38,737 nucleotides of DNA, taken from the NCBI RefSeq assembly GCF_004010195.1, contig NC_057718.1:80060555-80099291 (forward strand), given 5' to 3'. Below, piece after piece: positions 1,381 to 37,351 of the stretch. The notes beneath the pieces were generated by a model. That model saw only the letters and a program-made list of their open reading frames with translations. It did not search any database and had not been told where the DNA came from. The position numbers and the translations under genes were made by a program. The DNA is from Chiloscyllium plagiosum. Its lineage: Eukaryota. Position 1 is the first letter of the stretch; each line of letters starts with the position of its first letter.

Positions 1381-2686
1381 GATTGGGGCTTATAGCTGTG
1401 CTTTTACAATCTGGCATTTCCATGTTGCCTTGCTTCTCCGGAAGTAGCCCTAACTGGCATTCAACGATTATCTCACGACAACTGACAACTTCTTGGAGAT
1501 TTTGTATTCAATCTTTTGTGGCACCCATTGATGTAAATCATCCAGCCACATGGATTTACATAATTTTAACTCTTTTTACTTTTATTCGAGCCTGAGAATT
1601 TTATGCAATCACACCAGAGTCACTAGCTGACATACAAATCTTTCTATTAGGCTGCATGCTAATATAATAACTATTTTCTGAACTAATCAGGCAGCGAGTT
1701 AACTTTTTTTAGTTCATCAACAATTTTCATTCTGTATTCTTAAGGGACTCTTCTTTCTTGACAATATTCCTGTTGTCATATGCTGGAAGAATTTCTTGCT
1801 GTAACATTTAGTATGTAGGTCTATGTTCATTTCTAGATCTCCATTTGCATTAATGACTGCCACTTCTTATTTTTTTTGTAAGTTTAAATTCTGTCATGCT
1901 GGAGGGAATTAAATATGTAACCATCACAAATGCCTACATAGTATGAAGAAGCAAACTGTGTGATGTGAGTTGATGGAATTTAAGTAAAAGCTGCCTTAAA
2001 GAAGTGATGCACTTCCTGACCTACCAGAATGCCCCTTCCACTGGGACACATAGCTGAACGGCATTGGGGAGTGAACAAATGGTTCTCACTGCAATTTGCA
2101 TGAATAGCACAGTAACAATCAGATAATTAGACATTTTTTCTGACAGTTAATTAAGACAAAAGGAGACAACTATTCCCAGAATACAACAGCTATTAGCGAG
2201 CACTTCTCTTCTGATTGAATCTCAAAGCTGGCCTTTAAGGTGAAAATGGCATTATTCTCATCAGCACTTTAAACATCAAGTAAAGGAGATTTTGTCCCTT
2301 GGTCCTTGAACACAATAAATCTACCATTTGTATTTTGTATCCTCTGAACTGCGCGTAATTTATCACTTTATTGAAAAGGTTCCATTATGCTAATGTTTTA
2401 CAAAAATCACTTGATCTTCTATGAGGTCAAAAGGCCATTTTTCTATGCATATGTTTGACTATGACTGATTTCTAATGTCACTGAAAGCAATACAAAAAAT
2501 ATAATGAAGATTATTCCCACATAGAGAAGTGTAAGAGAAAGAAAAGCATTAAGAGACCTCAGCGACAGTGCATTTAGAAAAAAAACTTAAGTCTATGCAA
2601 ATTCTGAAAGAAAAAAAGTCATAAAATAACAATATGAAAGCAATTAACTATTTTTAACAATGACCTTTATTGGTTCAGAGCACACA

Positions 2687-5040
2687 GAATCATGGAGTAA
2701 TAGAATTATACAGCACAGAAGGAGGCCATTAAGTCCAACATGCCTGTGTCAGCTTTTTGAATAAACTACCAATAATCCCATTCCACTGCTCTTTACCCAG
2801 AGCCCTGCAACCTTTTTTCACTTCAAATACATATATGATTTTCTTTAGAAAATAATTACTAAATTTCCTTCCACCACTCTTTCAAATCAGATCATTACAA
2901 ATCAATGTGTAAATTATTTTTCTTCATGTTACCTTTGATTCTTTACCTTAAATATGTATCTATTTGTTACCAAACTTTCTGTATTGAAAGTTTTTCTCCT
3001 TATTTACCCTATCAGAGTCTTTCAAGATTTTGAACAATTTTATTAAACCTCCCCTTAACATAATCCAAATGAAAGAAAGCAATACTAGTTTTTCTAATGT
3101 CTAAATCATGATTGAAGTCATTCTTTCCTGGTACCATGGTAACAAATCTCTTCTGCACTCTCTCAAAGCCTTGACATTCCCCCTAAAACGTAGTACCCAG
3201 AATCTGCCATAATATACCGGTTGAAGTCAAAATGTATTTTTTTTAAAGATCAAGAACATTGTTCTTGTTTGATTTTTAAGTCTACTTTTTATGAAATCAA
3301 GGATCCGGTAAGACTTTTTAAAAGCCTGCACAACTTGCCTTGCTACCTTCAAAGATTGCTTTATACATTCCCAGGACTCTCAGTTTCTCCAGCCCCTTTA
3401 AAAGTCTACTTTTTAGCTTTTTTTTCTCCTTATTCTTTCTTGAATCACCTTCCATTTCTTTACATTAAATTTCATCTGCTATGCATATTTCCCATGTCAC
3501 CACTCTATGTCCTTCTCTTTCTCAGTTTGCATCATCGGCAAAGTTTAAAATTATGGCCTTTAAGTGAAAATCCAAGTCACCATACATACTATTAGCAATA
3601 GCCTCAAAACCAACCTCATTACACATTTGCCTCCAGTCTGAAAAATAACCATCAACCAATATTCATTACTTCCTGACCTTTAAGCATTTCATTCCATGCA
3701 TTTCAATTACTTTAACTATTTACAATATGCACAATCAATATTTTTAAAAACTCTGTATATTCATCTGTTGCATTATACTCAAACAGACCTCTCCATTACT
3801 TCATCAAAGAACCCAGTCAGGTTGGGCAAACATAATTTGTTTTTAAGAATCCAAACTGGCTTTCATTTATTAACCCATTTTTACAAGACCAGTTGAACAT
3901 TCCTGAATTCACCAAACCTCCAGTACCACTTGATAAAGCTAAAATGAGATGAATGATTGTGGCTAGATCATCTGCAATTTCCACTCTTGCTGCCCTTAGC
4001 AAACTAGACTGCATCATCTCAAGACCAGATGCCTTTCAATTGTTAATTTTATCTGCATTATCCATTTTCATTAATGAAAGCAGATGTAAAGTATTAGTTT
4101 TATACCACAAAAACATCTAAATAATTTTCATAGTCTTTAATCGATTCCTTCATTCTTTTGACTACCTTTTTACTATTTGTCCATTTCTAAATGTGTAAAT
4201 GTATGGATCTAAGATGATGGCAGAGTAGGACGCTTCAGCAGAGGTTGTCTGATCCATCTGTTTCTTTCCCTTTTATTTCTCACATGATAGTCTTTCAGCG
4301 GCTTATGTGGTGTTTTGCCCTGATCTCTCAGCAATACTTGGTGGTCTGTTGGCAGTTGATGGTGGTCCCTCAGCCCAGTCTCTTGGTTTGGCATGGCAGT
4401 ACCTTGGCATGTGAGTGGGTCCTAGAAGCAGCAAGAGGAGATCGGGGAGGTGGCAGCTTCAGTGGAAGCAGCAGCAGCAGCAATGGCATTGCAACCCCAA
4501 TCGACAAGAACAAGCATTGAGGGAGGTCCCCCAGTATCTGTGGCGGTGATATCGAGAACAGACAGCTGAAGTTTCCCAGACAGTGAGATAAGTGGAGGTT
4601 TCATCTAAGACTACTGAGTTTTTAAATTAACAAAGTTTTTAACTTTGTTTTCTAGTTTAAACTAAGAAAGACTTTAGCGTTAACTATTGCCTTACTTCTT
4701 TATTTTTCTACTTGTTTTTTGAAGGCAATGCTTAACTATTTAACTCTGTTCTCTTACTACTTTGTACCTAAGTTTATTGTACCTAGGGATCTTTTATGTA
4801 AGATGGTGCCTTTTGTGGTGACATTATACACTTTTCAGCATACTCCTGTACTTCTGTTCTCAAATACACTTCACAATAAAAGCTAAAAGACTTTGTCTTT
4901 CTTTTGATGTTACTCATTTTCTGTTCTCATTCACTCTTTTTGCCCTATTTTCCAGTTCTGTCAGTACTTTTTGAAATTACCTGATTCTTTCCAATGAATT
5001 ATGAAGCTAATATTTAATATAATCCTCCTGTTTTATTTTA
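2687..5040 (-). mobile_element. Old CR1 LINE (3' end and ORF2 remnant), interrupted at about 4200-4886
   Basis: Starts with agaatcatggagtaatagaattatacagcacagaaggaggcc, like the CR1 tail at 24631. Minus ORF 3817..4017 LLRAARVEIADDLATI matches CR1 ORF2 RLLREAQEEIAGALADI. Confidence 0.75.
4205..4886 (+). mobile_element. Non-autonomous SINE-like insertion with LINE-type 3' tail
   Basis: GC-richer 5' half, T-rich middle, ends ...cacttcacaataaaagctaaa. It splits an otherwise continuous CR1 remnant. Family not identified. Confidence 0.5.
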
Positions 5041-5829
5041 ATTTAATCCCAGGAAGTTAATTTGAATACTTCCTGAAAACGGGTGTGGAGATCAGAGTAC
5101 ATAATTATTCTGAAACTGCACATTGCATTGCAAGCAATGCATCAATATTTTGCTGCCCACTGTTTTACATTGTTTTTGTTTGCAACCGATGTTACCTGCA
5201 CTGATCAATGGATTCGTGCATTTGAGGAAGAATTAATATCATAAATTGCTAGTGTTACTGAAAGACAACTTGGTCTTGTTAAAGATAAGGTGCATTGTGG
5301 TGACAGAAAGTCACAGTCACTGTTTTGATACTTTGAGGATTGCTGTCATGCTGCAGTAAAGAGGCTTGTACATTCTGTTGATTCAGAGAGCAAGAGTTCT
5401 CAACTGTTAGCCAGGCCATCATGATGGTATGGTCAAAGCCAATCCAAAACAAGTTCTCAATGGAGATTCTGGCAGAAGATATTAGTGTGATATCAATGGC
5501 TGCAACAGCAGATGAAGGCTGCAGCAGTGGGGAGGTCCCCAGTCATTGAAGTCTTCCTTGCCAGGAAGCTGGATCTACTTTCTGTCAAGGACTCTGTCTG
5601 ATGATATGCAAGAGCATTCTCACATTAAAAGCATAGGGCGTTTACCTAGAGGAGACCAGTTCCACCCCTCACAAACATCTAACAAATATGTGGTCAGAGA
5701 CATGTCTCTAGATAGGGCTAATCAACCACACAAGGACCCACAGAACCCATTACCAGTTACATGGAATTTCCTCGGTGGACTTTTAGTAAGTGATTGCTGA
5801 CAACAACTTTGAGAAATGGCTGAACATGT

Positions 5830-6165
5830 AACATAGTATGTTACAAGAGTTTTTGATTATATTCTGAAGGCTTTAATGCAAGAGCTAAAGAGAAACAGAG
5901 TTTTCCTATATCTAATTGAGGACACTGAGTCACAAACTCAGGAATTAGTAGGATGAAGTAACAATGGAGATTTACAGCTGTTGATGCTAGATCAGTTGTT
6001 AATTTTAAATTTGAGTCAGATAAACCTTTGTTAAGCAAAGGTATTAAGGGATATGGGCCAAAGGCAGGTACATGGAGTTGGGCCCCCGATCAGCCATTAT
6101 CTCAATAAATGGCAGAACAGACTGGAAGGGCTGAATGGCCTATTCCTGTTTCTGAGTTCCTATGT
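5830..6165 (+). mobile_element. CR1 3' end fragment
   Basis: aagggatatggg...gatcagccat...gaagggctgaatggcctattcctgttt...cctatgtt is a typical CR1 3' stem-loop/tail region. Confidence 0.7.
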
Positions 6166-6789
6166 TAACATCAGGAGTGTGGCTCCAGGCAAACTGATCC
6201 AATGCAGGAAGAAGTTTCTGAATCTGACACAAATTCTCAAGATGAGTGGTTTCAGTCTTAAAATGGGGTATCTGAATGCTAGTGCATCCACTGTTCGATT
6301 CGCTATACCCAATCATTCATATACTAACAATCTTTATCACTTCTCAACCCTTCATTTTTATCTCATCTACATGCACTTAGCCATATTCCAAGCCTCACAT
6401 CCATGCTGACAACTTGCAAGATTGACAATTCAATCAAGACAAGCATATACCCCTTGTAAATTTATGATTATGTTAAAGTACATTTAGATGCAAGGTTATT
6501 TTCTTTTGTTGCTATGTAAGTAGCTTGATTGCCTAAGAATAAATCTTTATTTTGAAAAAGAGCAATTTTTGCATGATATTAACATATATCTTTGAGAGCC
6601 ATACATTAAACTGATGTCAATCATGATCTCCCTTAACAATATATGATGAATTATTTTGGTGACTTGTTAGACAGTCGCTGAGCAGCATTGGTAGGAGTCA
6701 GACATATTGTACTTAGCTCCTAGTGGATACTATCTGTCTACAGTTGAATCTTGGGTAGAAAAGAACATAACAGCCATGATGCCTTTCCT

Positions 6790-6907
6790 TAAGATGATTT
6801 GGAGGTGCTGGAGTGTACAAGGAGGTGCTCAAAGGAGCAGTGCTTAGAAATAGTGCTTCCAAATAAACTTGTTGGACTATAACCTGGTGTTGTGTGATTT
6901 TTAACTA
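6790..6907 (+). mobile_element. PLE family C terminus fragment
   Basis: tagtgcttccaaataaacttgttggactataacctggtgttgtgtgatttttaact is the near reverse complement of 33362-33417. Confidence 0.75.
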
Positions 6908-7034
6908 TCTTTGCAATGACTGTTATAACCACTGTGAGTCTGGCATCATATCTATGTAAGATAAGGTACAAGATAAGAATGTCAAGGGTTTTTGACTGAA
7001 GAACGTGAATGAACCAGATGGTTTAAATGATAGG

Positions 7035-8185
7035 AGACAGTAAGGACTGCAGATGATGGAAGTCAGAGGTGATAGATGTGAAGCTGGAAGGGCAGAGCAG
7101 GTCAGACAGCATCTGAGGAGCAGGAGAGTCAAAGATTCAGGCCAAAATCCTTTGTCAAGACTGGGGAGGGGAAGGGAGCCCACTTGTATATAGAGGGAAG
7201 GAGGTGGGGCTGGGAGAGGGGTAGGTGGAATGGTGGTAGGTGAAAGAAGGTTTCTTGTGATTGATCATTGGGAAAGATGAAATGGACAGGTGAGTAGGAA
7301 GATGGACAGGTGAGGACAGGTCAGGGAGGTGAAGAGGAGGGGTGAGGTTAGACATGGAATGAGGCTTGTGGAGGAGGGGTTTTGAAGCTGATGAAGTCAA
7401 ATGTTGAGGCCATTGGACTGTAAGCTTCCAGGCGAAAGATAAGGTGTTATTCCTTCAGTTTCCGTTTGGCCTAACTCTTGACAGTTGAGGAGGCCAAGGA
7501 TGGACGTGTCGACGGGGTATTGGGAGGGGGAAATTAAAGTGGATGACAACTGTAAGATCAGGTTGGTTAATGCATACTGAGTGCAAATGCTCCATGAACT
7601 GGTTCCCGAGTTTGTGTTTAGTCTCCCTGACATAGAGGAGACCAAATCAGGAGCAACGGATGCAATAGATGAGGTCGGATGACGTGTAGGTGAATTTCTA
7701 ACGGATCTGGAAGGATTATTTAGGGCCTTGAACAGAGGTAAGAGAGGAGGTGTGGGGGCAGGAGTTGTACCTCTTACTGTTGCAGAGAAAGGTATCAATT
7801 GTAGTGAAGAAGTTGGTGGGGGGTGTAGAGTTGACGATGGAGTTGCAGAGTGAGCAATCCATGTGGAAAGCAGACAGGGGTGAGGAAAGAAATGTCTTTT
7901 TAGTGGTAGGGTCTGATTGAGGTGGTATAAATGTTGGAGGATGAGACAATGGATTCGGAGGTTGATGGGGTGGTTGGTATCGTTATTGTTGTTGAGTCAA
8001 TTTCCAGAGATGGAGACAGAGAGGTACAGGAGGGGGAAGGAGGTGTCAGAAATGGTCCAGCTGAATTTGAAAGTGGGGTGGAAGGTAATGGTGAAGTTGA
8101 TGAATTGTGGGAGCATGAGGCAGCACCAATGCAGTCATCAATATAATAGAGGAAGAAGTGAGGGCTGGTGCTGGTGTAGTTGCAG
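7035..8185 (-). mobile_element. Penelope-like element (family A-related), minus arm: GIY-YIG region, 3' UTR and terminus
   Basis: Minus 7620-7680 encodes NLIYCIRCS*FGLLYVRET (GIY-YIG). Terminus aggactgcagatg...gcaggtcagacagcatctgaggagcaggag matches the mini elements. Inverted homolog of about 8890-10030. Confidence 0.85.
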
Positions 8186-8189
8186 AAGA

Positions 8190-10040
8190 GGGACTACTTC
8201 ATGAATCCTGCGAAGATAATTGCTGATAAGGGTGGCCCGGTGGTAGCATGGCGAACTGACCAATACATGGCTGAGACCAGATGCAAACTCTCTGACACCT
8301 CCACTTACCATCCCTTGACCATGACCTCTGATCACCAAGACATCATCTCCCAGACCATCAAAAACCTCACCATTTTGGGAGATCTCCCTTCTACAGCCTT
8401 CAATGTGATAGTTCCCCAACCCTGCATCATCCATTTCTATCTCCTACACAAAATCCTTAAACCAGACTGCCCCGCTCAATCCAAGTCATTACCTGCTCCT
8501 GCCCTACCAAGCTCATCTCCTCTTACCTCAACTCTGTTCTTTCCCCTTTGTATAGAAACTCCTCACCTACACTCGAGTCACAACCCACTTCCAAAACTTC
8601 AATTCCCTGGCCCCCAACATCTCATCTCTACCCTTTACACCTGCATCCTTCACAAGGAGGGCCTAAAAGCCCTTTGCTTCTTCCTCTCTTGTAGGCCCAA
8701 CTAGTGCCCCTCCACTGACACCCTTATTCGCCTGGCAGAACAGGTCCTCACCCTCAACAACTTTTTATTTTATTCCTCCTATTTCCTACAAACCAAAGGG
8801 GTAGCCATAGGCACCTGCCTGGGCCCCAGCTATTCCTATCTCTTTGTAGGATTCATGGAACAGTCTTTCTTTCGCAACTACACCAGCATCATCCTTCACT
8901 CCCTCCTTCGCTATATTGATGACTGCATCAGTGCTGCCTCATCTCCCCGTGAGGAGCTCACGTAGTTCATCAACTTCGCCAACACCTTCCACCCCACCCT
9001 CTAATTCACCTAGACCATTTCTGACATCTTATTACCCTTCCTGGACCTCTCCATCTCCATCTCTGGACATGGACTCAGCACTGATATCCATTTCAAACCC
9101 TTTACTCCCACAATTACCTCGTCAACACCTCTCGCCCACCTCCTGCAAAGATGCTACCCCATACTACCAATTCCTCCACCTCCACTGCATCAACTCCCAA
9201 GATACTCCAGGACATCGCAGATATCCTTCTACTTTACGGACCATAGTTTCCCCTCCGCAGTATTTAAGGATGCCCTCAACCATATCTCCTCCATCTCCTG
9301 CACTTCTGCCTTCAAACCCCTTGCTCCCAACAACAATGATAGAGTCCACTTAGTCCTCACATACCACCACACCAATCTCCAAAACCAATACATCATCCCA
9401 TGATATCATCCCATGACAGTTCTGCCAGCTACAATCAGACCCCACCACCAAAACGATATTTCCTTCCCCACCCCTGTCTGCTTTTCACAGTGACTGTTCA
9501 CTCTGAGACTCCCTCATCAACTCTACAATGCCCACCAAATTCTCTTCCACACAGTACCTTTCCCTGCAACTGCAAGAGGTGCAACTCCTGCCCCTACACC
9601 TCCTCCCTCACCTTCGTCCAAGGCCCTAAGCAACCTTTCCAGATCTAACAGAGATTCACCTGTACGTCATCCAACTTCATCTATTGCATCCGTTGCACCC
9701 GATGTGGTCTCCTCTATATCGGGGAGACCAAATGCAGACTTGGGGACCAGTTCACAGAGCAACTGCACTCAATACGCATTAACCAACCTGACCTTCCGGT
9801 TGCCATTCATTTCAATTCCCCCCTACCTTCCAACCCCCAGTCATCCTTGGCCTCCTCCATTGTCAGAGTGAGGCCAAACAGAATGGAGGAACAAAACCTT
9901 ATCTTTCGCCTGGGAAGCTTATAGTCCAATGGCCTCAACATTTGACTTCATCAGCTTCAAAATCCCTCCTCACTAAGCCTTATCCCATATCTAACCTCAC
10001 CCCTCCTCCTCACCTCCCTAACCTGTCCATGTTCCTACAT
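8190..10040 (+). mobile_element. Penelope-like element (family A-related), plus arm: RT + GIY-YIG, pseudogenised
   Basis: ADKGGPVV, GVAIGT, RYIDDC (YIDD 8912-8923), CNCKRCNSCPY and SNFIYCIRCTRCGLLYIGET (9670-9729); many frameshifts and stops. Confidence 0.9.
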
Positions 10041-11182: not shown

Positions 11183-11540
11183 TAGGCCTCCATTCTGACA
11201 GAGCGGTTAGGAGAGAAGGTAGAGAGAAGCGAGGGCTGTTGGGAAGGGTAAGTTTTCCCACTTAAAAAAAGAATTACCTCAGGAGTTGGGCCTCCATTTT
11301 GACAGAGCGGCAAGGAGAGAAGCGAGCGCTGCCGGGAAGGGTAAGTTTTCCCACTTAAAAAGGGACTTACCTCAGGAGTCGGGTCTCCATATTGACAGAG
11401 CAGCGACGAGAGGTGGAGAGAAGCAAGGGTTGCTGGGAAGGGACTTACCTTGGGAGTCAGGCCTCCATTTTGACAGAGTGGCGAGGAGAGAAGATGGAGA
11501 GAAGCGAGGGCTGCCGGGAAGGATAAGTTTTCCCATTTTT
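11183..11540 (+). repeat. Tandem array of about four 80-100 bp monomers in the CR1 5' UTR
   Basis: Unit ggcctccattttgacagagcggcgaggagag...gaagcgagggctgccgggaagg starts near 11185, 11288, 11381 and 11460. Confidence 0.9.
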
Positions 11541-11768
11541 TCCTGTCTGGGAGCAGCGGGAGACACAGCGGAAGTGGAGACCAAGAGAGTGCCGGGAAGG
11601 TAAGGACTTAGTATATATTTGGGCTGCGGCTAAACCCGAGATCCCTCCCGCTCATCTCCTCTAACCAGAAGAAAAAGATTCTGTAAGGTAAAGCGTTTTT
11701 TTATCTTTCTTTTTCATATTTAAGTGCATTGTTTGGTTGTAGTTAGTTATTATAAAGGTAGGCTTACA

Positions 11769-12705
11769 ATGGCAGGGGCCTTCAGACCCGTGGCGTGTGC
11801 CTCTTGCTTGATGTGGGAGCTTAGGAATGTTGCTGACGTTCCTGACTCTTACACTTGCAAGACGTGTGTCCAGCTGCAGCTGTTGTTTGACCGCATGACA
11901 GCTCTGGAGCTGTGGATGGACTCATAGTGGAGCATCTGCGATGCTGAGGAGGTCGTGGATAGCACGTTTAGTGAATTGTTCACACCACAGGTTAGAATTG
12001 CTGAGGGAGATTGTGAATGGGTGACCAAAAGGCAGAAAAAGAGTAAGAAGGCAGTGCAGGTGTCCCCTGCGGTCATCTCCCTCTAAAACAGGTATACTGT
12101 TTTAGATACTGTTGGGGGAGATGGCTCACCAGGGGAGGGCAGCAGTTGCCAATATCATGGCACTGTGGCAGGCACTGCTGTTCAGAAAGGTGGGAAAAAG
12201 ACTCGTAGGGCCATAGTCATTAGGGATTATATTGAAAGAAGAATAGACAGGCGGTTCTGTGGCCAAAAATGGGACTCCTGGATGGTGTGTTGCCTCCCAC
12301 TTGGGTCAGGGATGTCACCGATTGGCTGCAGAGCATTCTTAAAGGGAAGGGTGAACAGCCAGTTGTCTTGGTGCATATAGGCAGCAACGATATAAGTAAA
12401 AAACGAGATAAGGTCCTGAAAGAAGAATTCAGGGAACTAGGAGAGAAGTTAAAGAGGGTAAAGAAGGTAGTGATCTCAGGACTACTAACAGTGCCACATG
12501 CTAGCCAGCGGAGAAATGAAAAAATAGGCAGGAAGAACATGTGGCTTGAGGGATGGTGTATGAGGGAGGGGTTCAGGTTTGTTGGACATTGGGACCAGTT
12601 CTGAGGAAGGTGGGACTATTACAAAATGGATTGTCTACATCTGAACCAGACCGGAACCAATGTCCTTGGGAGAGTTTTTGCTACTGCTGCTGGGGAGATT
12701 TTAAA
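11769..12705 (+). pseudogene. CR1 ORF1: CxxC...CxxC zinc finger, coiled coil, SGNH-type esterase
   Basis: ATG at 11769; CASCLMW...YTCKTC, VVLVHIGSNDI, DCLHLN; stops and frameshifts. Confidence 0.85.
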
Positions 12706-13367
12706 CGAATGTGGCAGGGGGCTTGGAACCAGAGGGGAAGACAAGTAGACAGCGAGATGGAAATTGGAGACTGTAAGAATCATGAAGTTAGCGTTGATAA
12801 AATAGCATTAATAAGGGGAAGATGGGGCAGACAGCAGATGAACGCAAAAGAACTGGTGGCCTGAAATGCATCTACTTTAATGCAAAGAGTACAGTGTGTA
12901 AGGCAGATGAGCTTAGGGCTTGGATTGGTGCCTGGGAGTATGACATTATTGCAATCACTGAGACTTGGTTGAAGGAAGGGCATGATTGGCAACTAAATGT
13001 TCCAGGATATAGACCGCTTCAGACAGGACAGGAGGGAAGTAAAAGTGGGGGTGGAGTTGCACTGCTGGTCAGGGATGATATCACAGCTTGGGTAGTGAAG
13101 CATTATGGGTGGAGCTGAGAAATAAGAAGGGTGCAGTTACATTGTTGGGGCTGTATTACAAGCCTCCCAACAGTGAGCGTGAGGCAGAAGAACAAATACG
13201 TAAGCAGATTATGGAAAGATGTAGAGGCAATAGGGTAGTGGTGATGGGAGATTTTAATTTTCCCAACATTGACTGGGATACACTTAGCGTCAGAGGTCTG
13301 GATGGGGTAGAATTTGTAAGAAGCATACAGGAGATTTTCTAGAGCAGTATGTCAATAGTCTGATGAG

Positions 13368-13547
13368 ATTCTGGATTAGAGGTACTGGAAAAGCACAGCA
13401 GTTCAGGCAGGTATTCCTGATGAAGGGCTTTTGCCCGAAACGTCGATTTTACTGCTCCTCGGATGCTGCCTGAACTGCTGTGCGTTTCCAGCACCTCTAA
13501 TCCAGAATCTGGTTTCCAGTATCTGCAGTCATTGTTTTTACCTTTTA
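13368..13547 (+). mobile_element. Mini fold-back PLE-terminus insertion 2 (A-related subfamily) inside the CR1 endonuclease
   Basis: 45-nt inverted arms 13366-13410 and 13466-13510 (2 mismatches); 14-bp TSD AATAGTCTGATGAG 13354-13367 and AATAGTCCAATGAG 13548-13561. Confidence 0.88.
13411..13452 (+). ncRNA. Minimal type I hammerhead ribozyme motif, core intact
   Basis: CTGATGA (13417-13423), A, GGGC-TTTT-GCCC, GAAA (13437-13440), CG, TC; predicted cleavage after C13444. Stem I is weak. Confidence 0.8.
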
Positions 13548-16500
13548 AATAGTCCAATGAGGGAAGGGGCCATATTGGACCTGGTAATGGGGAATGAGCC
13601 AGGACAGGTGGTAGAAGTTGCAGTCGGGGATTTCTTTGGGAACAGTGACCACAATTCTGTAAGTTTTAGAATACTCATAGACAAAGATGAGAGTGGTCCT
13701 AAGGGAAGAACACTAAACTGGGCCAAGGTCAATTATTTCAAAATTTGGCAGGAGCTGGGAAATGTGGACACAGCTATTTGAAGGGAAGTCTGCATTTGAT
13801 ATGTGGGAGGCTTTCAAAGATAGGTTAAAGATAGTGCAGGATAGGCATGTCCCGTTGAAGGCAAAGGATAGGAAAGGCAAGATTTGTGAACCGTGGATGA
13901 CAGGAGAAATCGTACGACTAGCCAAGAGGAAAAGGGAAGCGTACATAAGGTCCAGGCAGCTAAGAACAGAATGGGCCCTAGAGGAATATCGGAAGAGTAG
14001 GACCAGTCTTAAATGAGGAATCAAGCGGCTAAAAGGGGTCATGAAATAGCTTTAGCGAACAAAATTAAGGAGAATCCCAAAGCATTTTATTCTTATATAA
14101 GAAGCAAATGGGTACTTAAAGAAAGGGTTGGTCCATTAAAGGCTAATGAAGGAAAGCTGTGTGTCGAACCTGAGAGAATGGGTGAGATTCTGAATGATTA
14201 CTTTGCATCAGTGTTCACAAAAGAGAGGAACATGATGAATGTTGGGATTAGAGATAGAAGTTTGATTAGTCTGGATCAGGTTGACATAAGTAGGGAAGAT
14301 GTGTTGGCAAGGCTAGAGGTTATTAAATCCTCAGGACTGGATGGGATCTATCCCAGGTTGCTGAGGGAGGCGCAAGAGGAAATAGCTGGGGCCCTAGCAG
14401 ATATCTTTCTGGCATCCTTAAACAGATGAGGTGCCGGAAGACTGCTCACATTGTTCCTCCTGTACAAGAAGGGTAGTAGGGATATTCCAGGTAACTACAG
14501 ACCAGCGAACCTGACGTCAGTGGTGGGAAAGTTGCTGGAGTAGGTACTGAGGGATAAGATCTAATGATATTTAGAAAAGAATGGGCTCATCAGGTTTTGT
14601 GCGGGGGAGATCGTGCCTTACCAACTTAATAGAGGTCTTTGAGGAAGTGACCAAGTTCTTTGAGGAAGTGACCAAGTTGATAGATGAAGGAAGGGCTGTT
14701 GATGTCATATACATGGATTTTATTAAAGTATTTGATAAGGTTCTACATAGTAAAGTAATATAGAAAGTGGAGTCACATGGTGTGCAGGGTGTTCTAGCTA
14801 GGTGGATAAAGAACTGGTTGAGCAACAGGAGACAGAGAGTAGTAGTTGAAGGGAGTTTCTCAAAATGGAGAAAGGTGACCAGTGGTTTTCCACAGGGATC
14901 AGTGCAGGGGCTACTGTTGTTTGTGATGTACATAAATGATCTGGAAGAGGGCACTGTTGGTATGATCAGCAAGTTTGCAGATGACATGAAGATTGGAGTA
15001 GGAGAAAGCATAAGGGAGTCAAAGAACACAGGAGAATATAGATAGACTGGAGAGTTGGGTGGCAAAGTGGCAGATGGAGTTCAATCCAGGCAAATGTGAG
15101 GTGATGCATTTAGGCAAGTCTAATTCTAGAGCAAATTATACAATGAACGGAAGAGCCTTGGGAAAGGTTGATGAGCAGGGAGATCTGGGAGTGCAGGTCC
15201 AATGTACCCTGAAGGTTGCTGCACAGATGGATAGAGTGGGCAAGAAGGCATATGCTTGCCTTCACCGGACAGGGTATTGAGTATAAGAGCTGGCAAGTCA
15301 TGTTGCAATTGTACAAGACATTGGTTCGGCCACATTTAGAATACTGTGAACAGTTCTGGTCACCACATTACCAAAAGGATGTGGACGCTTTGGAGAGGGT
15401 GCAGAGAAGGTTTATGAGGAGGTTGCCTGGTATAGAAGGTGCTAGCTATGAAGAGAGGTTGAGTATATTAGGTTTGTTTTCATTAGAAAAAAGGAGATGG
15501 GGGGGGACGGGGACCTGATTGAGGTCTACAAAATCATGAAGGGTATAGACAGAGTAGATAAAGATAAGCTTTTTCCCAGGGTGAAGGATTCAATAACGAG
15601 AGGTCACGCTTTCAAGGTTGAGAGGTGAAAAGTCTCAGGGGGATACATGCGGCAAGTGCTTTACACAGAGGGTGGTGAGTGTCTGGAACGCGTTGCCATC
15701 AGAGGTAGTGGAGGCAGGCACGGTAGATTCATTTAAGATGCATCTGGACAGATGCATGAGTAGGTGGGGAACAAAGGGATACAGATGTTTAGAAATTGGG
15801 TGACAGGTTTAGACAGTGGATTTGGATCGGCTCAGGCTTGGAGGGCCGAAAGGCCTTTTCCTGGGCTGTAAATTTTCTTTGTTCTTTTCTTTGTTCTTTA
15901 GCACCCAATCACAACACAATGCCATCCATGCTCTCAAAACCAATCACAATATTGTCATCAAACAAGCAGATAAAGGAGGAGACATCATCATTCAGAATAA
16001 ACTGCCTATTGCAAGGAAGTGTACCAACAACTGAAGAACCAGGAACACTATAGGCAACTGCCAGCCTATCTGACCAAAGAGCACACCCATGAACTAAAAC
16101 ATTGATCTTTGATGCAGTCGTTCAGAGCCCTCATCCCATGTACTTCTTGCGTAGGAGACTTCTACTGCCTACTGAAGATACACAAAGCTAACACACCAGG
16201 ACATCCCATCATATCAGGCAATGGGACCCTGTGTGAGAACCTCTCTGGTCATGTCAAAGGCATCTTGAAACCCATTGTACAGGGGACCCCCAGCTTCTGT
16301 TGCGACACTACAGATTTCTTACAGAAACTCAATACCCATGGACCAGTCGAACCGGGAACATTCCTCGTCACAATGGATGTTTCAGCACTCTATACCAGCA
16401 TTCCCCACAATGATGGCATCGTGGCAACAGCCTTAGTACTCAATACCAACAACTGCCAGTCTCCGGCACTATCCTACAACTCATCCGCTTTATCCTCGAT

Positions 16501-18229
16501 CACAATGTTTTCACCTTTGACAACCAGTTCTTCATCCAGACACATGGAACAACTGTGCGGACCAAATTTGCACTCCAATATGCTAACATTTTCATGTACA
16601 AGTTTGAACAAGACTTCTTCTCTAAGCAGGACCTCCAACCAACACTATACACAAGGTATATTGACGACATTGTCTTCCTCTGGACCCATGGCGAGGAATC
16701 ACTGTAACAATGATACAGGGATAACAACGAGTTTCATTCCACATCAAACTCACCATGGACTTTCTTTAGTATCTGCCTCATTCTTGGACACATGCATCTC
16801 CATCAAAGATGGGCACCTCCGCTCCTCATTGTATCGCAAACCCACGGATAACCTCATGATGCTACACTCCTCTAGCTGCCACTCTAAACACATTAAAACA
16901 GCCATCCCCTATGGACATGCCCTATATATATATACACAGGATCTGTTCAGATGAGGGGGAATGTGACAGACACATGGAAGTACTCAAGCATGCTCTTATA
17001 AGAACAGAGTACAATGCTCAACTCATCGATCTCCAGTTCCGACGTGCTACTGCGATAAACCGTAATGACCTCGTTAGGAGACAGACATGAGCTGCAACCA
17101 ATAGGGTACCCTTTATGGTCCAGTACTTCCCGGGAGCCGAAAAACTATGCCATGTTCTTTGCAGCCTGCATAACATTATCAATGAGGATGAGCACCTCGC
17201 CACGATCTTCCCCACATCTCCACTTCTTGCCTTTAAACAACCATCAAACCTCAAACTGATCATTGTTCGCTGCAAACTCCCTGGCCTTCAGGACAACACC
17301 ATACATACTGCCCCGGCAGCTGCTGCAAGACGTGTCAGAATGTCGACATGGATACCACCATTACACATGGGGACACCACCTACCATGTATGTGGCAGGTG
17401 CTCATGTGTCTCTGCCAACGGTGCCTATTTCATATGCTAAAGGCAAGGATGCCGTAAGGCATGGTACATTGGCAAGACCGAGCCCACACACACACACAAA
17501 CACACACTCTCCTCTGGACTGACACACCCACGCAGACAGTCTCTCATCCACAAGCTCTCTCTCATACACTCATGCATACACCCCCCACACTCACATACAC
17601 ACATATAAGTTTGTGGAGTGAATTTGTACTTGCAGAATTACATTTTATTTTGCACAAAAATTGCATAAACCCATGAAACATTCTGTGAATCTCACTTTAG
17701 AAATAGAATCAGCCTGACCTAACATTGGGACACAGACAGACTTTAACTTCACACCTTCAATGCATTATCTGAGCTGAGATGACACCTGTTGTTAAAAGCT
17801 ATCTTGCGAATGTAACTTTTAAAAAGTTCTGGGATTTACATATGAAGGAACTGAAACTAACATGATTTTTCTAAAAGATGAAAGACACAAGCTAAATTTG
17901 TTTAATATTACATTCCATGACACTGCAATCCTGTTGCAATAAATTCTGTGTCGTATGATTCTGCTCCACAACCACCCAATGAAGGAAAGCTAATCCTTTC
18001 TTTTATAATCTATGCCTGTATTAGTAAACCTTAAGATATGGTATGCCTTATTGATTTCTTTCAATCTGTCCTGCCATCTTTAAGTATGGTGGCAGCAAAA
18101 CTACCAGATGGATCTTACACTATCCCAAACTGCAGTGAGGAATCATCATACCACATGATGGCAATGAGTTGCAATATACAAGGCACTGGCAGCTATCTGT
18201 CAGAGACTGGTTGAGCAAACAGTCAGTAG

Positions 18230-19680
18230 TTGGATAGTCTTGGCTATAAGCCCTTAGCATGGTTTTTAATGTCTGGTGCCACCTTTCTAGTGGAGAAAGT
18301 GAGGACTGCAGATGCTGGAGATCAGAGCTGAAAATGTGTTGCTGGAAAAGCGCAGCAGGTCAGGCAGCATCCAAGGAACAGGAGAATCGACGTTTCGGGC
18401 ATAAGCCCTTCACGTCGATTCTCCTGTTCCTTGGATGCTGCCTGACCTGCTGCGCTTTTCCAGCAACACATTTTCAGCCACCTTTCTAGTGCCTCCTGCA
18501 TTTCTGGATGGTATGCAGTAGGCTTGAATTGTTTTATTTCTAAGCTGTCCATAACCTCCTTGAACAATTTTGATGTAAAATGTGACTCTTGACATGACTG
18601 CATCTCTGTGGTTGTCTGTATCTAGTAAAAAAATTGAGTAACTCTTCTACAATCCTTTTAACTGCGATATTGTGTTATGGAACGGCTTCTAAAACCTAGC
18701 GGACACATCCATTATTGTCAACAAACACTGATTTCCACTTTGTTTTAGGTTGGGATCCCACACTATCAATTAAGAGTCTTGTAAAAGGTTCCTCAAATGC
18801 AGGAATTGATATTAAAGGTGCAGATTTTATTACTGCCTGAAGTTTTTCAATTACCTGACATGTATGACATGTCTGGCAAAATTCAACTCCATTCTTATGC
18901 AGTCCAAACCAGTCGTAATATTTTGTATTTTAGTTTGAATTTATCTTAAATGACCTCCTACTGGTAATTAATGTGCTACCCGCAACACCCCCTTTGTACA
19001 ACCCCACTGGTAATATGCTTTGATGAACTTCTGCCCATTTCTCATCTGACTGAATATGTGATGGTCTCTATTTCCTCATTAAGACATCATTTAAGATAGT
19101 AGCACATAGAGATACACTCAGATTCTTCTTCTGTGTATGCTTTTTGATACAATTGCTTCAGTTTTTCATCTTTCTGTTGTAACTCAGTTAATTTCTCTGA
19201 GCTAAAATTATCCTCCACCTGCACCTGTTTTGTCTCAACCATTCAACTTCCTTATCTGTATTCTTTGATTTCTCCTCCTGTTTCAACTGGTGACTTTGTG
19301 ACCTTGTTACCACAGAGTCAGGAAAAATCCCAAGATATGCTTCTTGTAAGACCTCAATTGCCTGATTTTCCACTGGCTTTTCAAGCACAGAGGGCAGCAG
19401 TCCTACCTGTGAACTAGCTGTATCGTTAGCAGGGATGAACTGATTTCCTGCAGCCGAGAGCTCTTCCATTATCCCTCCCACGACTTCTCCATTTCTCTCT
19501 GCTCACTCTAACCTCACTCGACATAATTGAACAATCCTCGTCTCACCGTGAATTCCATGTACTAACACTTTTTCTGGCTTCACTTCTCCTCATCTCTCAA
19601 CATCAAAAACTGACACAATCCTGTATCTCTTAATAACTGTTACCACTTTATTTGATGCTCCTGGCCTGTGCAAGTAAACC
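18230..19680 (-). pseudogene. pol remnant: aspartic protease + integrase
   Basis: LRDTG at 19619-19633; FCQTCHTCQ near 18856-18882; TAYHPEMQEALERWHQTLKTML, split by the insertion at 18293-18476. Confidence 0.85.
18293..18476 (-). mobile_element. Mini fold-back PLE-terminus insertion 3 (family A) inside the integrase
   Basis: Perfect 67-nt inverted arms 18327-18393 and 18412-18478; perfect 15-bp TSD GCCACCTTTCTAGTG at 18278-18292 and 18477-18491. Confidence 0.93.
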
Positions 19681-19851: not shown

Positions 19852-21044
19852 ACACTGTGATTTCATGTGGCCTACTTTATTGCAGTGAAAACACTACAGC
19901 TTTTTAACTTGCTTTTCCCCTTCATGCGTTTCCTTTTTACCCTGTAGTAAGCTATCTTTATGACCTTCATCGAGATCTGTTTTCCCCAATTTCTATCCTT
20001 CATGATAGAAATTGATGGTGGAAGCCAAACTTTGATTTATGAACTAACTTATAATCATCAGCCATTTCAGTTGCTAATCTTGCCGTTTTAACCCTCTGCT
20101 CTTCCAAATGAGTACTCAGTATTTCAGGAAGTGAGTTTTTGAACTCCTCCAAAATAATTGTCTCTCTAAGATTGTCATAGGTTTGCTCTATTTTTAATAC
20201 CCTTATCCACCTGTCAAAATTACTTTGTTTGATCCTTTCAAATTCAATGTTTGTCCGAACAGGGTCCCTCCTTAGATTCCTGAAACCTTGTTTGTAGGCT
20301 TCAGGTACAAGCTTATCTGCACTTAAGATGGCTTTCTTCACCTCCTCATACTCCCCAGACACCTCCTCTAATAGTGATGCAAATACCTCACTAGCTCTAC
20401 CTACTAGCTTTGTTTGGATCAACAAAACCCACATGGTCACTGGCCACTTTATTTGTTTAGCCACCTTCTCAAATGAGATGAAAAGAGCTTCGACATACTT
20501 CTCATCAAATTTAGGCAATGCTTGGACATACTTAAACAGATCCCCACCATGCTTTTGGCTACGATGGGCTTGCTCACCTTCACTAAGCCTACCTTCCACC
20601 TTCAGCTCCACCCTTTCAAGCCGGCTTTCCTGTCTAAGTACCAATTTATGAAGTTCAAACTCTCGCTCTTTCTCTCTTTTCTCTTCCTCCTTTTCTTCTT
20701 CCTCTTTCTCCCTTTCTTCTGCTAGGGCCTTCCCCTCCATTTCCTTTTGTTCTGCTAAAGTGATTCTGTCCTTTTTGTTTTGTTCTGCCAGGGCAATTTG
20801 TTCTTTTTCTCTTTCCTCTGCTTTTAATCAAAATTCAAAATGCTTCATTTTTTTCTCTTTTTTTTGCCTCTAACTCAAACTGCTTCATTTTCAATTGAAT
20901 TTTAGCCACTTCCAAAGATTCTGATGGTGTTTCTAGCAAATTTAAATGCTGAGCTAATGCTGCAATTATACCTCCCTTTCTCATGGATGAAGGCAACTCC
21001 AACTCCAGGTTGTCTGCCAATTCCAGCAGCTTTGCCTTGCTCAC
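19852..21044 (-). pseudogene. gag: charged coiled coil, capsid/SCAN-like domain, CCHC zinc knuckle
   Basis: ORFs 20835..21044 and 20000..20740 (LPKFDEK...FEKVA...WP...LVPEAYKQGFR...IILEEFKNSLP); CFHCNKVGHMKSQC at 19852-19893. Confidence 0.88.
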
Positions 21045-25179: not shown

Positions 25180-25351
25180 CGACGTTTCCGGCATAAGCCC
25201 TTCTTCAGGAATTCCTGAAGCCATTCCTGAAGAAGGGCTTATGCCCGAAACATCGATTCTCCTGTTCCCTGGATGCTGCCTGACCTGCTGCACTGTTCCA
25301 GCAACACATTTTCAGCTCTGATCTCCAGCATCTGCAGACCTCACTTTTTCC
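25180..25351 (+). mobile_element. Mini fold-back PLE-terminus insertion 4 (family A)
   Basis: 34-nt inverted arms 25179-25212 and 25223-25256; perfect 14-bp TSD CTGACCAATGATTT at 25166-25179 and 25352-25365. Confidence 0.92.
25221..25260 (+). ncRNA. Minimal hammerhead motif, with a second copy on the minus strand at 25179-25212
   Basis: Plus: CTGAAGA (25227-25233)-A-GGGC-TTAT-GCCC-GAAA-CA-TC. Minus: CTGAAGA-A-GGGC-TTAT-GCCG-GAAA-CG-TC. Confidence 0.75.
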
Positions 25352-27004: not shown

Positions 27005-27342
27005 GAGGAGAAAGTGAAGACTGCAGATGCTGGAGATCAGAGTCGAGAGTGTGGTGCTGGAAAAGTACAGCAGATCAGGCAGCATTTGAGGAGCAGGAGA
27101 ATTGATGTTTCGGGCATAAGCCTGTGGGCCGGGGGACTGAGAGATGTATGGGAGGGTTGTCGGGTTGGGGAAAGGTAGCTGGGAATGTGACAGATAGATG
27201 AAGGTGCGGGTGGAAGTGATAGTCTGACAGGAAGGTGGGCAATGGTGCTGGGGCTCCTGATGAAGGGCTTATGCCCAAAACGTTGATTCTCCTGCTCCTT
27301 GGGTGCTGCATAACATGCTATGCTTTTGCAGCACCATGTTTT
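27005..27342 (-). mobile_element. Fold-back PLE-terminus insertion 5 (older, longer)
   Basis: Minus terminus plus 3' UTR, then an inverted arm from 27255 with CTGATGA-A-GGGC-TTAT-GCCC-AAAA-CG-TT. TSD CAATTTAATATTGAA 26990-27004 and CAACTTAATATTGAA 27343-27357. Confidence 0.85.
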
Positions 27343-29579
27343 CAACTTAATATTGAACTTCATTATATTACAATCACAATTTCCAATGTACCCCACCACA
27401 TTCTCCACTCGGACTGCATAATTTCCTAGGACTAAAGCCAGCACAGCTTCGTCCCTGTTGAATGGAAATACACTATTTCAGAAAGTTCACCTGAACACAT
27501 TTCAGGAATTTCTCCCCTTCTGGGCCCACACCCTACCTTTTTCCCAGTGAACCCTAAGATTATTAAAATCACCAATTATAGCAACTCCACTTGCCCTGTA
27601 GATTTCCACAATCTGCCTACAAATGCTCTCTTTGGTGGACTATAATTAATACCTCAAATTCCACATCCAACCATCTAGATTCCAATTCAGGAACTACAAT
27701 TCATTCAAAGGCAATTTTACTATCTTTGATAAAAACTGCTACAACACCTCCCTTTTTACCTGTTTCTACAGAAAACTTGAGAACCCAGGATATTGCTTAT
27801 CCAGTCCTGTTCTGGCTTGAGCCACATTTCTGTCAATGCTACTATGTCACAGAGCAACTTCTGTTTCCAGTTCCGCAATTTTGTTCATTCTACTCCGTAC
27901 GCTTTTATACATACAATTTTATCCTGCCTTTATCCCTTTCTTCTTCAGTGGAAGGCGACTATCTCTTTGTTTACTGTCAACACTCAGGCCTTCTCTCACT
28001 TCCTTGTCCCCATTTCCTATCTTCTCTCTTTTGCCCTCTTTGGTACTTCCAAACTAGGCCTATTAGTCCAGCCATCCCCGCCTTACAAGATTAAATCCAC
28101 CCCCAATACATTAGTTACTCTCTCAGCCAGGAGATTAATTTCATTTCTGCTCAGGTTAAGCCCATCTCTTTTGAACAGCTTTCTCCTTTCCTAAAAGTGA
28201 TCCCAATGTTCCAAAGCTCTACACCCATCCCCTTCTACACCATCGCTCAAGCCATGAACCTACCTACCTGATCTACCTTTGCCTAAATAACAACACTTGT
28301 GGCACCGGTATTATTTCTGAGATGACTACCTTCAAGGTCCTCTGTTTCAACCTAACTCTTATAACTGATCCTGCAAGACCGCCAAGCTATCCCTGTCAAT
28401 ATTGTTGGTTCCCACATGGACCACAACTACTGGTTGCTCACACTCCCTTTCCAGAAGTTTATCCAGGAATTCCACTGTGTTCCAAACTCTTGCAACTGTG
28501 AGGCAACAGAATAACATGACTCACGATCTAAGCTGCAAACGAGGCTGTCTATCCCTTAGACTAGTGACTCACCTACAATCTTTCTAACCTGCCTACTAGC
28601 CTCTCTCTCTTTTCCCAGAGTAGCTTTGGGCAACATGGTCCTGTCATTCACCTTGAGTCATCCACACCCAACTCAGTCATGTTGTTCACTCAGTAGGCAT
28701 CTAAAAATTCACACCTGTTAGACAGCTCCAAGGAGTCTTGGATTTCCTGGGCCTGCTGTCTCTTTTCTTTTCAGTCAGCCACTCATCGCCACCTCTACTT
28801 TTTGCCCATTTAGCACAAATGGAGTGACCACCTTCTGGTATGACTGCTCCAGAAATCTCTCTCCTTCTTGTACAGTGCACAGTGAAAAAGAGTCACTGCT
28901 CCAAATCAGCAATATGTTGCTCATGGACTACTACCCTTTGAACTTCAAGTATCTGTGACCATCCTGGATATCTTATGGATCCAAAACATTCCACATTTTT
29001 ATGCCACACACATCACAAGCTTTCCCAAAGTTCCTGCCATCTATATAGGTCAAAATGATGCACACTGCTGAGGCTCTACAGTTTCTAAGCCAAAAAGAAA
29101 TACTTTAATACCCCTTCTCTCTCTTTTTGCTTCAAAGAGTGAGGGAAATACAATATAATAATGAAATGTTTCGGTCTTCACTGTTCTTTGACACTTTCCC
29201 TCCACAATCCGTCTGTTAGTTGTGATCAGCAAGCCGATTCTCCCAGAATCCCCTTGGTTACTTCTCAGTACCACACCCTGTCCTCAGATGCCATGGATGT
29301 AGGAAAGCTGTGAACAAAATGGAGGGAGAGGAAGGGGTTTCTCGGCAGAAAGCCACATCTTCTCAGGTTGGTTTAGCAAACATTTCTCCTATATGAACCT
29401 CAGTAAGGCACAATGACTGGAATTTTAAGATGTTGCAATTATTCTGTCACAATTTGGGAATTCGGGGGCACCCCTAACTCAGTCAGTTGTGGGAAATCCA
29501 ACTCAATTTGTGAGCAGCAGGCAGCTAACTGTCTGCCATCAGTGTTCATATCTTCTTAAGGAACAAAGTGTCCCTTTCA

Positions 29580-35819: not shown

Positions 35820-37270
35820 TTCGAACACACAAACAAGGAGCAGGAGTACGCCATTCAGACCCTCAAGACTGCTCCACCATTCAGTAAGATTGTGGCTAAT
35901 TGGATTATACCCTCAAATCCATATATCCACCTACCCCTGATAATCATTCACCCCATGCTGAACAAAAATATACCCATCTGCTTTCAACATATTCAAGAAC
36001 TTTGCTTCCACCAACTTTCCAAAAAAGAGTTTGAATGCTTTTCTGACAGTGTTGTTTATCCTAATCTATGTTTTAAATGTATGATCCGTGATTTATAAAC
36101 ACTCTCATGAAAAAAACCGTCTCCATACCTACTTTGTGAAGACCCCTCAGGATTTAATATGTTTCCATCAAGTAATCGGGTAAGCTCTTCTAAACTCCAG
36201 AAACAAGAACAAACCTAGCCTGTCCAACCTTACCATACAAGACAACCCATTGCTTCCAGGTATTAGTTGAAAAGTGTGGCTCTGGAAAAACACATCAGGT
36301 CAGGCAGCATCCAAGGTGTAGGAAAGTCAACATCTCGGGCATAAGTTCTTCATCCTGACGTGCACAGTACTCCAGATTAGGTCTCACCAGTGTCCTATAT
36401 AAGTAAAACATATCATCTCTACTTCTGATTTCAATTTTTTTCACGATGATTGACAACATTCTATTAGCTTTTACAATTACTTGCTATACTTTCGTACAAC
36501 TATCATGATGATAGAGGAATCCCAAAGGAGACAAACCCTGAAGTAAACAAATGGAACTTTAAAAAAAAGACATATAGCCAAAAGTATGGAAATGTAAATT
36601 TAGTTACTTTCTGGAAAGAAAGATTCTGGAGTGTCACGGCTCACAAGATAAGGAAGCTTCAAAGAGATGGACTTAAAAGGAAGAAATCGCAGCACAAACT
36701 GAATTGTAACCTCTTTGGAGCTATCTCAGACTGTGAACGTTCTAAAAGGCAAAAACACCCCAGCAATCTGAATGATAGATATGTTTGGAGTCTTCTTTCA
36801 AGAATACACAAGCACAGGGTATAAAACCAATTAAAGCCTGGTTTCTCTGTGTTAGTGGAAGAATGTGTCCTGTTGAGCAGAGGTGCTCATGTGTGCCAGT
36901 AGACTGCAGTGCTCCTGTGTACTAGCATGGATGTGAGCAGGAGTGTGCTGTGAACATAACATTCTTTTAGCTTTCCTGATTACTTGCTGCATTTGCATAC
37001 TAAACATCGTGATTCATGTAATGGGACACACCGATCTTTCTACATCTCAGAGCTCTGCAACCTCTTACCATTTAAGTAATGTTTCTTTATTACTCTTTCT
37101 GCTAAAATATTCTATTTGCGAGATCTTTGCCCACTCTTTTAACCTATTTGTATCCATTTGTAGCCTCCTTATGTTCTCTTCACAACTCACTTTCCTACCT
37201 ATCTTTGTGTCATCAGCAAATTTAGTTACCAAATTGTCAGTCTCTTCTCCCAAATCATTTATATAACTTT
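35820..37270 (-). mobile_element. Decayed CR1 3' region, interrupted at about 36268-36355 and 36490-36950
   Basis: VTKFADDTKIG...LQMDTNRLKEWA in ORF 37065..37253; CR1-like tail at about 35820-35900. Confidence 0.7.
36268..36355 (-). mobile_element. Decayed family A PLE terminus fragment
   Basis: ctggaaaaacacatcaggtcaggcagcatccaagg...tcgggcataag. Confidence 0.7.
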
Positions 37271-37351
37271 TTAAATTTATTCATGGAAAGTGGGTGTTGC
37301 TGGCTGACCAGCATTTCTTACCCATTCCTAATCGCCCTTGAAAAGATGGTG

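Follow-up and report, generated by a model that had tools for sequence, protein, structure and literature searches.

The window, by which we mean the whole stretch of 38,737 nucleotides analysed, contains a minimal hammerhead motif within an insertion of 180 bases that interrupts a decayed LINE and is flanked by a target-site duplication (TSD) of 14 bp. Its features are listed below, with positions along the pseudo-LTR (pLTR) counted from C3 of the hammerhead as 0 and the predicted cut lying between +27 and +28.

11184..15900 (+): host, a decayed LINE, presumably of CR1 type, interrupted by the insert; outer limits approximate (domains, repeats, purine skew)
13354..13367 (+): left TSD, 14 bp; its final AG belongs to the inverted arm as well (TSD search)
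13366..13410 (-): inverted arm, pLTR +49 to +93, ending at the pLTR end (P site), without tail (inverted-repeat search, unit alignment)
13411..13416 (+): the direct arm begins here, at position -6, with the 5' strand of stem I; the G at 13410 is common to the inverted arm
13417..13444 (+): minimal type I hammerhead core with CUGAUGA, bulged A, 4-bp stem II, GAAA, ACGU and C17; predicted cut after 13444 (reading, descriptor)
13445..13510 (+): 3' strand of stem I and remaining pLTR; 13466-13510 pairs with the inverted arm
13511..13543 (+): 'tail' of the Penelope-like element (PLE), 33 nt, to the second start site (T site); the ORF follows in long copies
13544..13547 (+): TTTA, an addition of four letters separating tail and TSD, probably untemplated (direct reading)
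13548..13561 (+): right TSD, 14 bp (TSD search, L067 comparison)

The two TSD copies, AATAGTCTGATGAG and AATAGTCCAATGAG, differ at 2 positions, in a way that fits a single CpG having decayed in opposite directions; in L067, a paralogous LINE copy carries the target site once, with a gap of 0, and contigs from other sequencing runs omit about 200 letters at the insert site. The interrupted LINE retains an endonuclease piece (Exo_endo_phos, 12801-13118, E 5.9e-10) just upstream of the insert and an esterase-type ORF1 piece (Lipase_GDSL_2, 12236-12604, E 6.5e-5, below cut-off), with a tandem array of 78-101-nt repeats at its 5' end (11184-11538). Within the insert, the direct arm runs from -6 to +126—hammerhead, rest of the pLTR and 33-nt tail—and differs from the nearest copies compared at 2 of 133 positions. 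The arms at 13366-13410 and 13466-13510 are 45 nt long, 96% complementary and 55 nt apart, and the insert as a whole has a predicted folding energy of -96.7 kcal/mol (z -10.9). The AG that closes the left TSD can pair with the CU terminating the pLTR, the junction between the arms has microhomology of at most one letter, and T runs like TTTA also occur at L022, L023, L027 and L030.

Direct reading of the window places C3-A9 (CTGATGA) at 13417-13423, the extra A at 13424, stem II (GGGC/GCCC) at 13425-28 and 13433-36 around a TTTT loop, G12-A15.1 at 13437-40, CG at 13441-42, U16.1 at 13443 and C17 at 13444. The vestigial stem III is the ACGT palindrome at 13440-43. A preliminary description of this DNA had reported a complete core with an extra A after A9 and an ACGU palindrome, and the letters are as it claimed; stem I is likewise as weak as it had stated, with 3/4 pairs (C13416-G13445, U-A, a U.U mismatch, A13413-U13448). 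The order CUGANGA, GAAA, UH is present by both reading and descriptor, and the folding model gives the G10.1-C11.1 pair closing stem II a probability of 0.99-1.0, compared with 0.004-0.026 for stem I at the locus. A perfect stem I, ATTC/GAAT, occurs in one subfamily.

The motif is not a chance occurrence, since its matches are absent from shuffled sequence: allowing up to 3 mismatches, the 28-letter core occurs 5 times in the window and never in 100 shuffles, and a descriptor written for minimal hammerheads in general finds 58 hits in 1.14 Mb of the genome, against none in each of 5 shuffles. Among these 58 hits, the bulged A after A9 is found in 57 and the bulge is absent in none, while the palindrome centre is CG in 36 and GC in 10, the other 12 mostly fitting CpG decay. 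The Rfam search that the preliminary description had proposed as a check returned no family at gathering score across the whole window and, at 13200-13700, no hammerhead family even with the E limit raised to 10, miRNA-type hairpin noise being the sole output; because stem III is missing, we regard this negative as uninformative.

Other features of the window include four head-to-head insertions of sister subfamilies at about 1122-1300, 18292-18478, 25187-25351 and 27007-27346 (limits approximate), each with a 14-15-bp TSD, and solo older copies of the same pLTR family at 37351-37706 (-), 36270-36354 (-) and 7036-7340 (-). Degraded hammerheads of two other families lie at 33416-33444 (-), near 29678 (-) and near 836 (-), one family with a GGAGC-type stem II and an AGCT palindrome and one with a GGGTC-type stem II. 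A 275-aa open frame at 20000-20827 (-) has a SCAN domain (E 2.7e-9) and is, we assume, perhaps an LTR-retrotransposon remnant; two further open frames, of 282 aa at 16106-16954 (+) and 263 aa at 34058-34849 (-), have no Pfam match.

Parent element and genomic family

Judged from its sequence, the insert is the pLTR end of an RT/GIY-YIG Penelope-like element with a Neptune-type linker. Tracing the tail into longer copies reveals an ORF in which RT motifs, a C-x4-C-x2-C linker and the start of a GIY-YIG domain can be read. The order in L152 is pLTR with hammerhead, tail, ORF, RT, thumb and pLTR, with two N gaps and a hammerhead-bearing pLTR at each end; in L149 it is thumb, C-x4-C-x2-C linker, GIY-YIG, a 118-N gap, pLTR with hammerhead, tail and ORF start, and the thumbs of the two are 88% identical. 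RT with a C-terminal GIY-YIG stands beside hammerhead pLTRs in L148, L149, L152 and L154, each broken by gaps or stops. Pfam RVT_1 was found in 3/6 scanned pieces, one of them above cut-off, the L154 piece scoring 30.9 bits, and GIY-YIG in 1/6 (L149, E 0.0012, 19.6 bits against a cut-off of 22.6, in a piece interrupted by an N gap). The L149 translation has a CX2-5CxxC linker and two Cys between GIY and YIG, the features that define Neptune/Nematis PLEs (PMC8557442). The parent can thus be assigned to the Neptune- or Nematis-type EN+ PLEs by published motif definition, not by an RT tree, and the 33-nt tail, 45-nt inversion and 14-bp TSD of the window locus fit the EN+ PLE shape. The preliminary description had likened the motif to PLE hammerheads, and the same sequence indeed lies in the pLTRs of RT/GIY-YIG elements of this genome. 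No intact full-length parent was seen among the copies examined, and a PDB sequence search with the RT piece gave 0 hits. Moreover, some short copies (L123, L124, L125, L131, L138, L142, L145 and L147) have about 130-200 nt of ORF start joined to pLTR at differing points—miniature partial tandems probably made by template jumps—and head-to-tail copies (L026, L115, L119) carry two hammerheads about 250-270 nt apart.

The motif is real, but it is an ordinary copy of a known kind, and its "intact" core is not special, because ATTC followed by the core as far as G12 occurs without mismatch 24,840 times (5,792 + 19,048) in the genome. A sample of 814,185 bases, taken as blocks at round coordinates plus the neighbourhood of the window, contains 91 core matches, against 0 in a shuffle, which extrapolates to a rough copy number of about 4e5 with densities of 1 to 13 per 50-kb block. 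All core positions are kept in 44 of the 91 matches, and stem II as well in 31. The preliminary description had named stem II covariation as a test: none is found within the family, where the descriptor hits have GGGC/GCCC (43) or GGGT/GCCC (1), whereas compensated changes do separate the other families (GGAGC/GCTCC 9, GGAG/CTCC 2, GGGTC/GGCCC 1, GGGT/ACCC 1, GTTACC/GGTGAC 1), their weight limited by the fact that the descriptor itself demands stem II pairing. The palindrome similarly swaps from ACGT to AGCT between families.

Departures from the subfamily majority at non-CpG positions amount to 5.6% in the core (70/1250), 3.4% downstream (116/3451) and 4.2% in stem II; the core thus decays no slower than the downstream sequence, which gives no sign of selection on inserted copies. 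Subfamily majorities, by comparison, differ only at position 7, in loop II and in the flanks, all catalytic positions being retained. Hence we infer that active lineages keep the motif under constraint, whereas in copies such as 13417-13444 it is passive. About 2% of a single-cell polyA run (X21) yielded 667 and 1,160 family reads in both orientations, with no position where molecules begin or end in numbers; a further run (X22) had 0 family reads. The X21 reads stem from many loci, possibly of a related species, and from a type of library unable to reveal such ends, so they bear on neither expression nor cleavage.

Predicted folding, 5' ends and possible cleavage

A nearest-neighbour model, which ignores tertiary contacts and proteins, predicts an inactive hairpin for the monomer, with U4-G8 paired to CGUCG at +24 to +28; the same U4-G8/C15.2-G+28 pairing recurs in 5/5 contexts with the 13417-13444 core sequence folded alone. 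The active fold is predicted to cost 7.6 kcal/mol above the best with the arms against 5.7-6.8 without them, the closing pair of stem I has a probability of 0.004 with arms against about 0.02 without, and the palindrome-paired dimer fold is not favoured either (-10.3 vs -24.6 kcal/mol). Of what the preliminary description had proposed for the 45-nt arms, their inverted pairing therefore stands, whereas the help they were to give in closing the ribozyme does not find support in the predicted folds. Published assays found minimal hammerheads inactive as monomers and weakly active as dimers (PMC4209133), and the anole PLE hammerhead cuts only with protein (PMC11167929). The hammerhead described here, inactive alone in the predicted fold, would likewise probably need a helper in order to cut, whether the protein of the element or another RNA, and would do so in a minority of transcripts.

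The 5' ends of genomic copies bear on the template used. After dropping 44 units (next to N, at the reference limit or with a short reference), 185 ends remained: 46 fall between -6 and -2, 5 between +26 and +30. As most copies begin just upstream of the ribozyme, uncut RNA is the usual template, the window copy included. Ribozyme cleavage as the source of most 5' ends is rejected on the 5/185 near the cut. No pile-up of 5' ends was seen at a possible 3' splice site upstream, where a pyrimidine tract and a CAG stand some 17 nt ahead of C3, an arrangement known from D. virilis. A G precedes the copies starting at A(-4) in 9/13 cases, compared with 37/172 elsewhere (p 6e-4). Genome-wide, hand counts among the first 100 matches listed for each position gave G:A ratios of 53:39 for -6 and 24:18 for -4; the control at +48 had 15:34 (p 0.003 and 0.02), and that at +28 had 46:54 (p 0.11). 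A cap-like G genome-wide is thus moderately supported, one control speaking for it and the other not, and such a G could also stem from G-rich inverted arms or microhomology, as at the window locus. The letters around the start resemble an initiator consensus, and a capped start just before stem I is likely.

An indirect trace of cleavage is found in copies joined to U6. Exact patterns were searched with the joint either fixed at +28 (2 matches) or allowed from about +15 to +45 (4 matches, 4/4 of them at +28); both patterns being exact, the resulting count is a lower bound. At least 5 arms at 4 or more loci, spanning four pLTR variants, are joined to U6, all at +28—the predicted cut. The loci are L288, L289, L308 and L309 (C3:3.08 Mb, C10:45.25 Mb, C11:5.56 Mb and C31:9.51 Mb), L288 belonging to the same pLTR variant as the window locus. 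The U6 pieces score 90.4 bits at L289 and 97.5 and 95.5 bits in the two arms of L309 against Rfam U6; those at L288 and L308, of 36-40 nt, reach 21.9 and 22.5 bits, below gathering (E 0.01 and 0.007). In L309, U6 is present in both arms, with an internal U6 duplication in one. The joints retain GA instead of slipping to the T run two letters on. Hammerhead cleavage leaves a 5'-OH end. Since U6 ligation requires a partner with just such an end (PMC6789731) and the joints sit at the predicted cut, these loci constitute indirect evidence that the family cleaves in the germ line, in a minority of transcripts, and they are silent on the window locus and on dimers. They also lend indirect support to the cut after C13444 predicted in the preliminary description, lying at the equivalent bond of four other loci. 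Alternatively, some other nuclease may have made the RNA end, with a template switch there producing the U6 joint.

A reading that we consider unlikely concerns cleavage only and is compatible with the insertion model presented below. It takes the motif as a conserved, non-cutting RNA element of the pLTR—a protein-binding or start-site signal—with starts at +28 reflecting pauses of the RT. Ribozyme mutants leave in-vitro insertion unaffected (PMC11167929), the in-vitro activity of minimal hammerheads is very low (PMC4209133), and the excess of 5' ends at the cut is small: 157 purine-preceded at +28 against 88 pyrimidine-preceded at +29, beside 4,809 uninterrupted copies. Of 18 +28 copies inspected, 16 have no recognisable core upstream; some resemble short deletions or degraded junctions, and the purine bias of junction letters limits the weight of the excess. 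Such a reading, however, leaves aside that U6 is joined at exactly +28 in 4/4 loci with the GA retained, that its ligation calls for a 5'-OH, and that catalytic positions are kept across subfamily majorities and families.

Proposed origin of the inverted insertions

The arms of the insertion are a by-product of insertion formed anew each time and not ribozyme scaffolding; arm lengths, and likewise junctions, differ at every locus. Their architecture was surveyed in 1,516,758 bases, in which 229 units past a score filter (passed by 171/187 anchors in the first part of the sample) made up 190 insertions, 58 of them inverted. After exclusion of 7 pairs with an unclassifiable end, one arm has a tail end and the other a pLTR end in 50 of the 51 classifiable pairs (p 2e-14 against an expected 0.5); solo copies have 60 T, 68 P and 4 other ends; across the family, 3' ends form two peaks, at about +85 to +95 and +120 to +128. 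A TSD was found in 46/58 inverted insertions and in 0/58 controls, 30 of the 46 being 14-15 bp long; in solo copies the signal is weak (17/68 vs 1/68 in the control). The arms of a pair also share their variants: subfamily-diagnostic sites differ between arms in 19/292 cases (6.5%), compared with a background of 160/2564 (6.2%) and with 43-50% in random pairs. This agreement, together with the U6 in both arms of L309, points to one template and leads us to reject two unrelated RNAs as the sources of the arms; in three query-selected cases (L004-L006), the arms differ at variant sites by eye, which would point to two templates. Several short arms end at +49 (window 13410, L002, L288), possibly a preferred stop.

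In vitro, the anole PLE protein nicks and extends both strands, starting at two sites on either side of the tail and using chiefly uncut RNA (PMC11167929). These data, the 50/51 pairs with one T and one P end, and the pairs in which neither arm is nested in the other suggest together that each cut strand takes one start site on a single RNA. We consider it probable that the insertion in the window is a target-duplicated pLTR stub built by both-strand copying of PLE RNA, with the hammerhead a normal passenger copied uncut. The element's enzyme would cut both DNA strands about 14 bases apart at the target, and the element RNA would be copied onto both cut ends. On one strand, copying would start at the tail end and proceed to the likely RNA 5' end, 6 bases before the hammerhead; on the other, it would start at the pLTR end and stop after 45 bases. 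The two cDNA copies would then be joined head to head, giving the hairpin. The fuller claim—two-site, both-strand priming of one RNA with a 14-15-bp stagger and run-off at the capped end, and in addition germ-line cleavage at C17 with U6-ligated, retrotransposed ends—is one that we find slightly easier to accept than to reject.

The same shape could be produced by fold-back, in which a first cDNA, begun at the tail end, serves as its own primer and as template for the return strand, an endonuclease resolving the product at the pLTR end; both self-priming of PLE palindromes (PMC3846280) and endonuclease resolution, invoked for the PLE tail (PMC8557442), are published proposals. At the window locus the short arm is nested in the long one, so that the locus alone fits fold-back, and the diagnostic variants common to both arms and the TTC/GAA microhomology at many arm junctions agree with it. 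Fold-back nevertheless predicts that the tailed arm always reaches furthest 5', and this fails in 20 of 50 pairs, in which the tail-less arm extends at least 8 nt further; the tailed arm is the further one in 16, and 14 lie within 8 nt. Later loss of the palindrome centre could mimic non-nested arms, 10 of the 20 pairs differing by just 8-19 nt. In two sampled pairs there is little overlap between the arms, or none; in L288 it is plainly the tail-less arm that reaches further 5', and this arm alone carries the U6; and the window junction is without microhomology beyond one letter. We therefore judge fold-back quite unlikely as an explanation.

Finally, we hold it very improbable that the arms clamp the weak stem I shut, so that the insert would work as a ribozyme cassette, active as monomer or dimer and possibly mobile in its own right. 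The arms pair with each other and enclose the motif, with its complete core, in a 55-nt loop, but they do not lower the predicted cost of the active fold, the core folded alone is predicted to adopt the inactive pairing, arm lengths and junctions vary from locus to locus, the single tailed end with its TSD marks one insertion event, and the cores of genomic copies show no selection.

Nothing about the copy in the window points to an independent role. Taken singly, the motif is of little consequence, since neutrally decaying stubs carry such passenger ribozymes by the hundreds of thousands; greater interest lies in the family, which offers useful mechanistic clues to PLE insertion and cleavage. 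How PLE inverted repeats and tails are made has been described as still undefined (PMC8557442), and the fixed, countable ends found here give sharp in-vitro predictions (T and P ends, a 14-15-bp stagger, a start at -4/-6), while the U6 joints indicate the exact bond for a germ-line RNA assay.

Comparison with known systems

The motif closely resembles the minimal hammerheads of PLEs (Cervera and De la Pena 2014, PMC4209133): it shares the type I core, the extra nucleotide between 9 and 10.1, the G10.1-C11.1 pair, the palindromic 15.2-16.2 without loop 3 and the shortness of stem I (4-5 bp is usual for the class, and here 3/4 positions pair), as well as a genomic arrangement of mostly single dispersed copies with some opposite-strand pairs 100-700 bp apart. 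It differs in a stem II of 4 bp, compared with 7-8 bp in the Schistosoma families, and in its copy number, extrapolated to about 4e5 against roughly 2,000-9,000 in the genomes quantified there; the available portion of that paper's main text, supplements aside, names no shark. Non-LTR retrozymes are similarly non-coding, hammerhead-bearing and derived from PLE pLTRs, and are present in the one chondrichthyan sampled (bioRxiv 10.64898/2026.07.22.740005). They form head-to-tail tandem arrays, whereas the insert described here is head to head, with a single motif and no tandem array at the insertion site.

The overall architecture—a head-to-head inverted, 5'-truncated copy, a one-sided tail and a TSD—is that of Pen2a_Av-type insertions of EN+ PLEs, and the 33-nt tail falls within the 30-40 nt reported for this group (PMC3846280, PMC8557442); the inverted-plus-tail shape of PLEs has long been known (PMC3846280, PMC8557442, PMC2377424). 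The present insert differs in being the last 130 nt of the element, without ORF, and in a TSD of 14 bp instead of the 8-10 bp of the rotifer EN+ cases. PAc, a Poseidon element of Anolis (Frangieh et al. 2024, PMC11167929), shares two starts flanking the tail, an uncut template and, probably, both-strand nicking and extension and a protein-assisted hammerhead. PAc belongs to the Poseidon clade and was studied in vitro, whereas the parent here has the Neptune-type C-x4-C-x2-C linker; the main text of the PAc study does not use the two start sites to explain inverted copies and reports no RNA-seq reads ending at the hammerhead cut (PMC11167929). In a literature search limited largely to open-access papers, we found no PLE paper describing two-site both-strand priming, a cap-like start or U6 joints.

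LINE-1 offers a further parallel. The same RNA stretch is copied twice here, giving a hairpin, unlike in LINE-1, where the two parts of a twin-primed insertion are not duplicated. In both systems the two target ends prime on one RNA and the cDNAs join—by short complementarity in LINE-1, where an extra 5' G from the reverse-transcribed cap is also known—but the second LINE-1 primer anneals at a variable internal site, while both starts are fixed here (PMC2912911). The U6-joined arms likewise resemble the U6/LINE-1 chimeras formed by RtcB ligation, in which the U6 3' end with its T run is joined to retroelement RNA (Moldovan et al. 2019, PMC6789731). There, the joints are variable and the nuclease is described as unknown; here, all joints found coincide with the predicted hammerhead cut.
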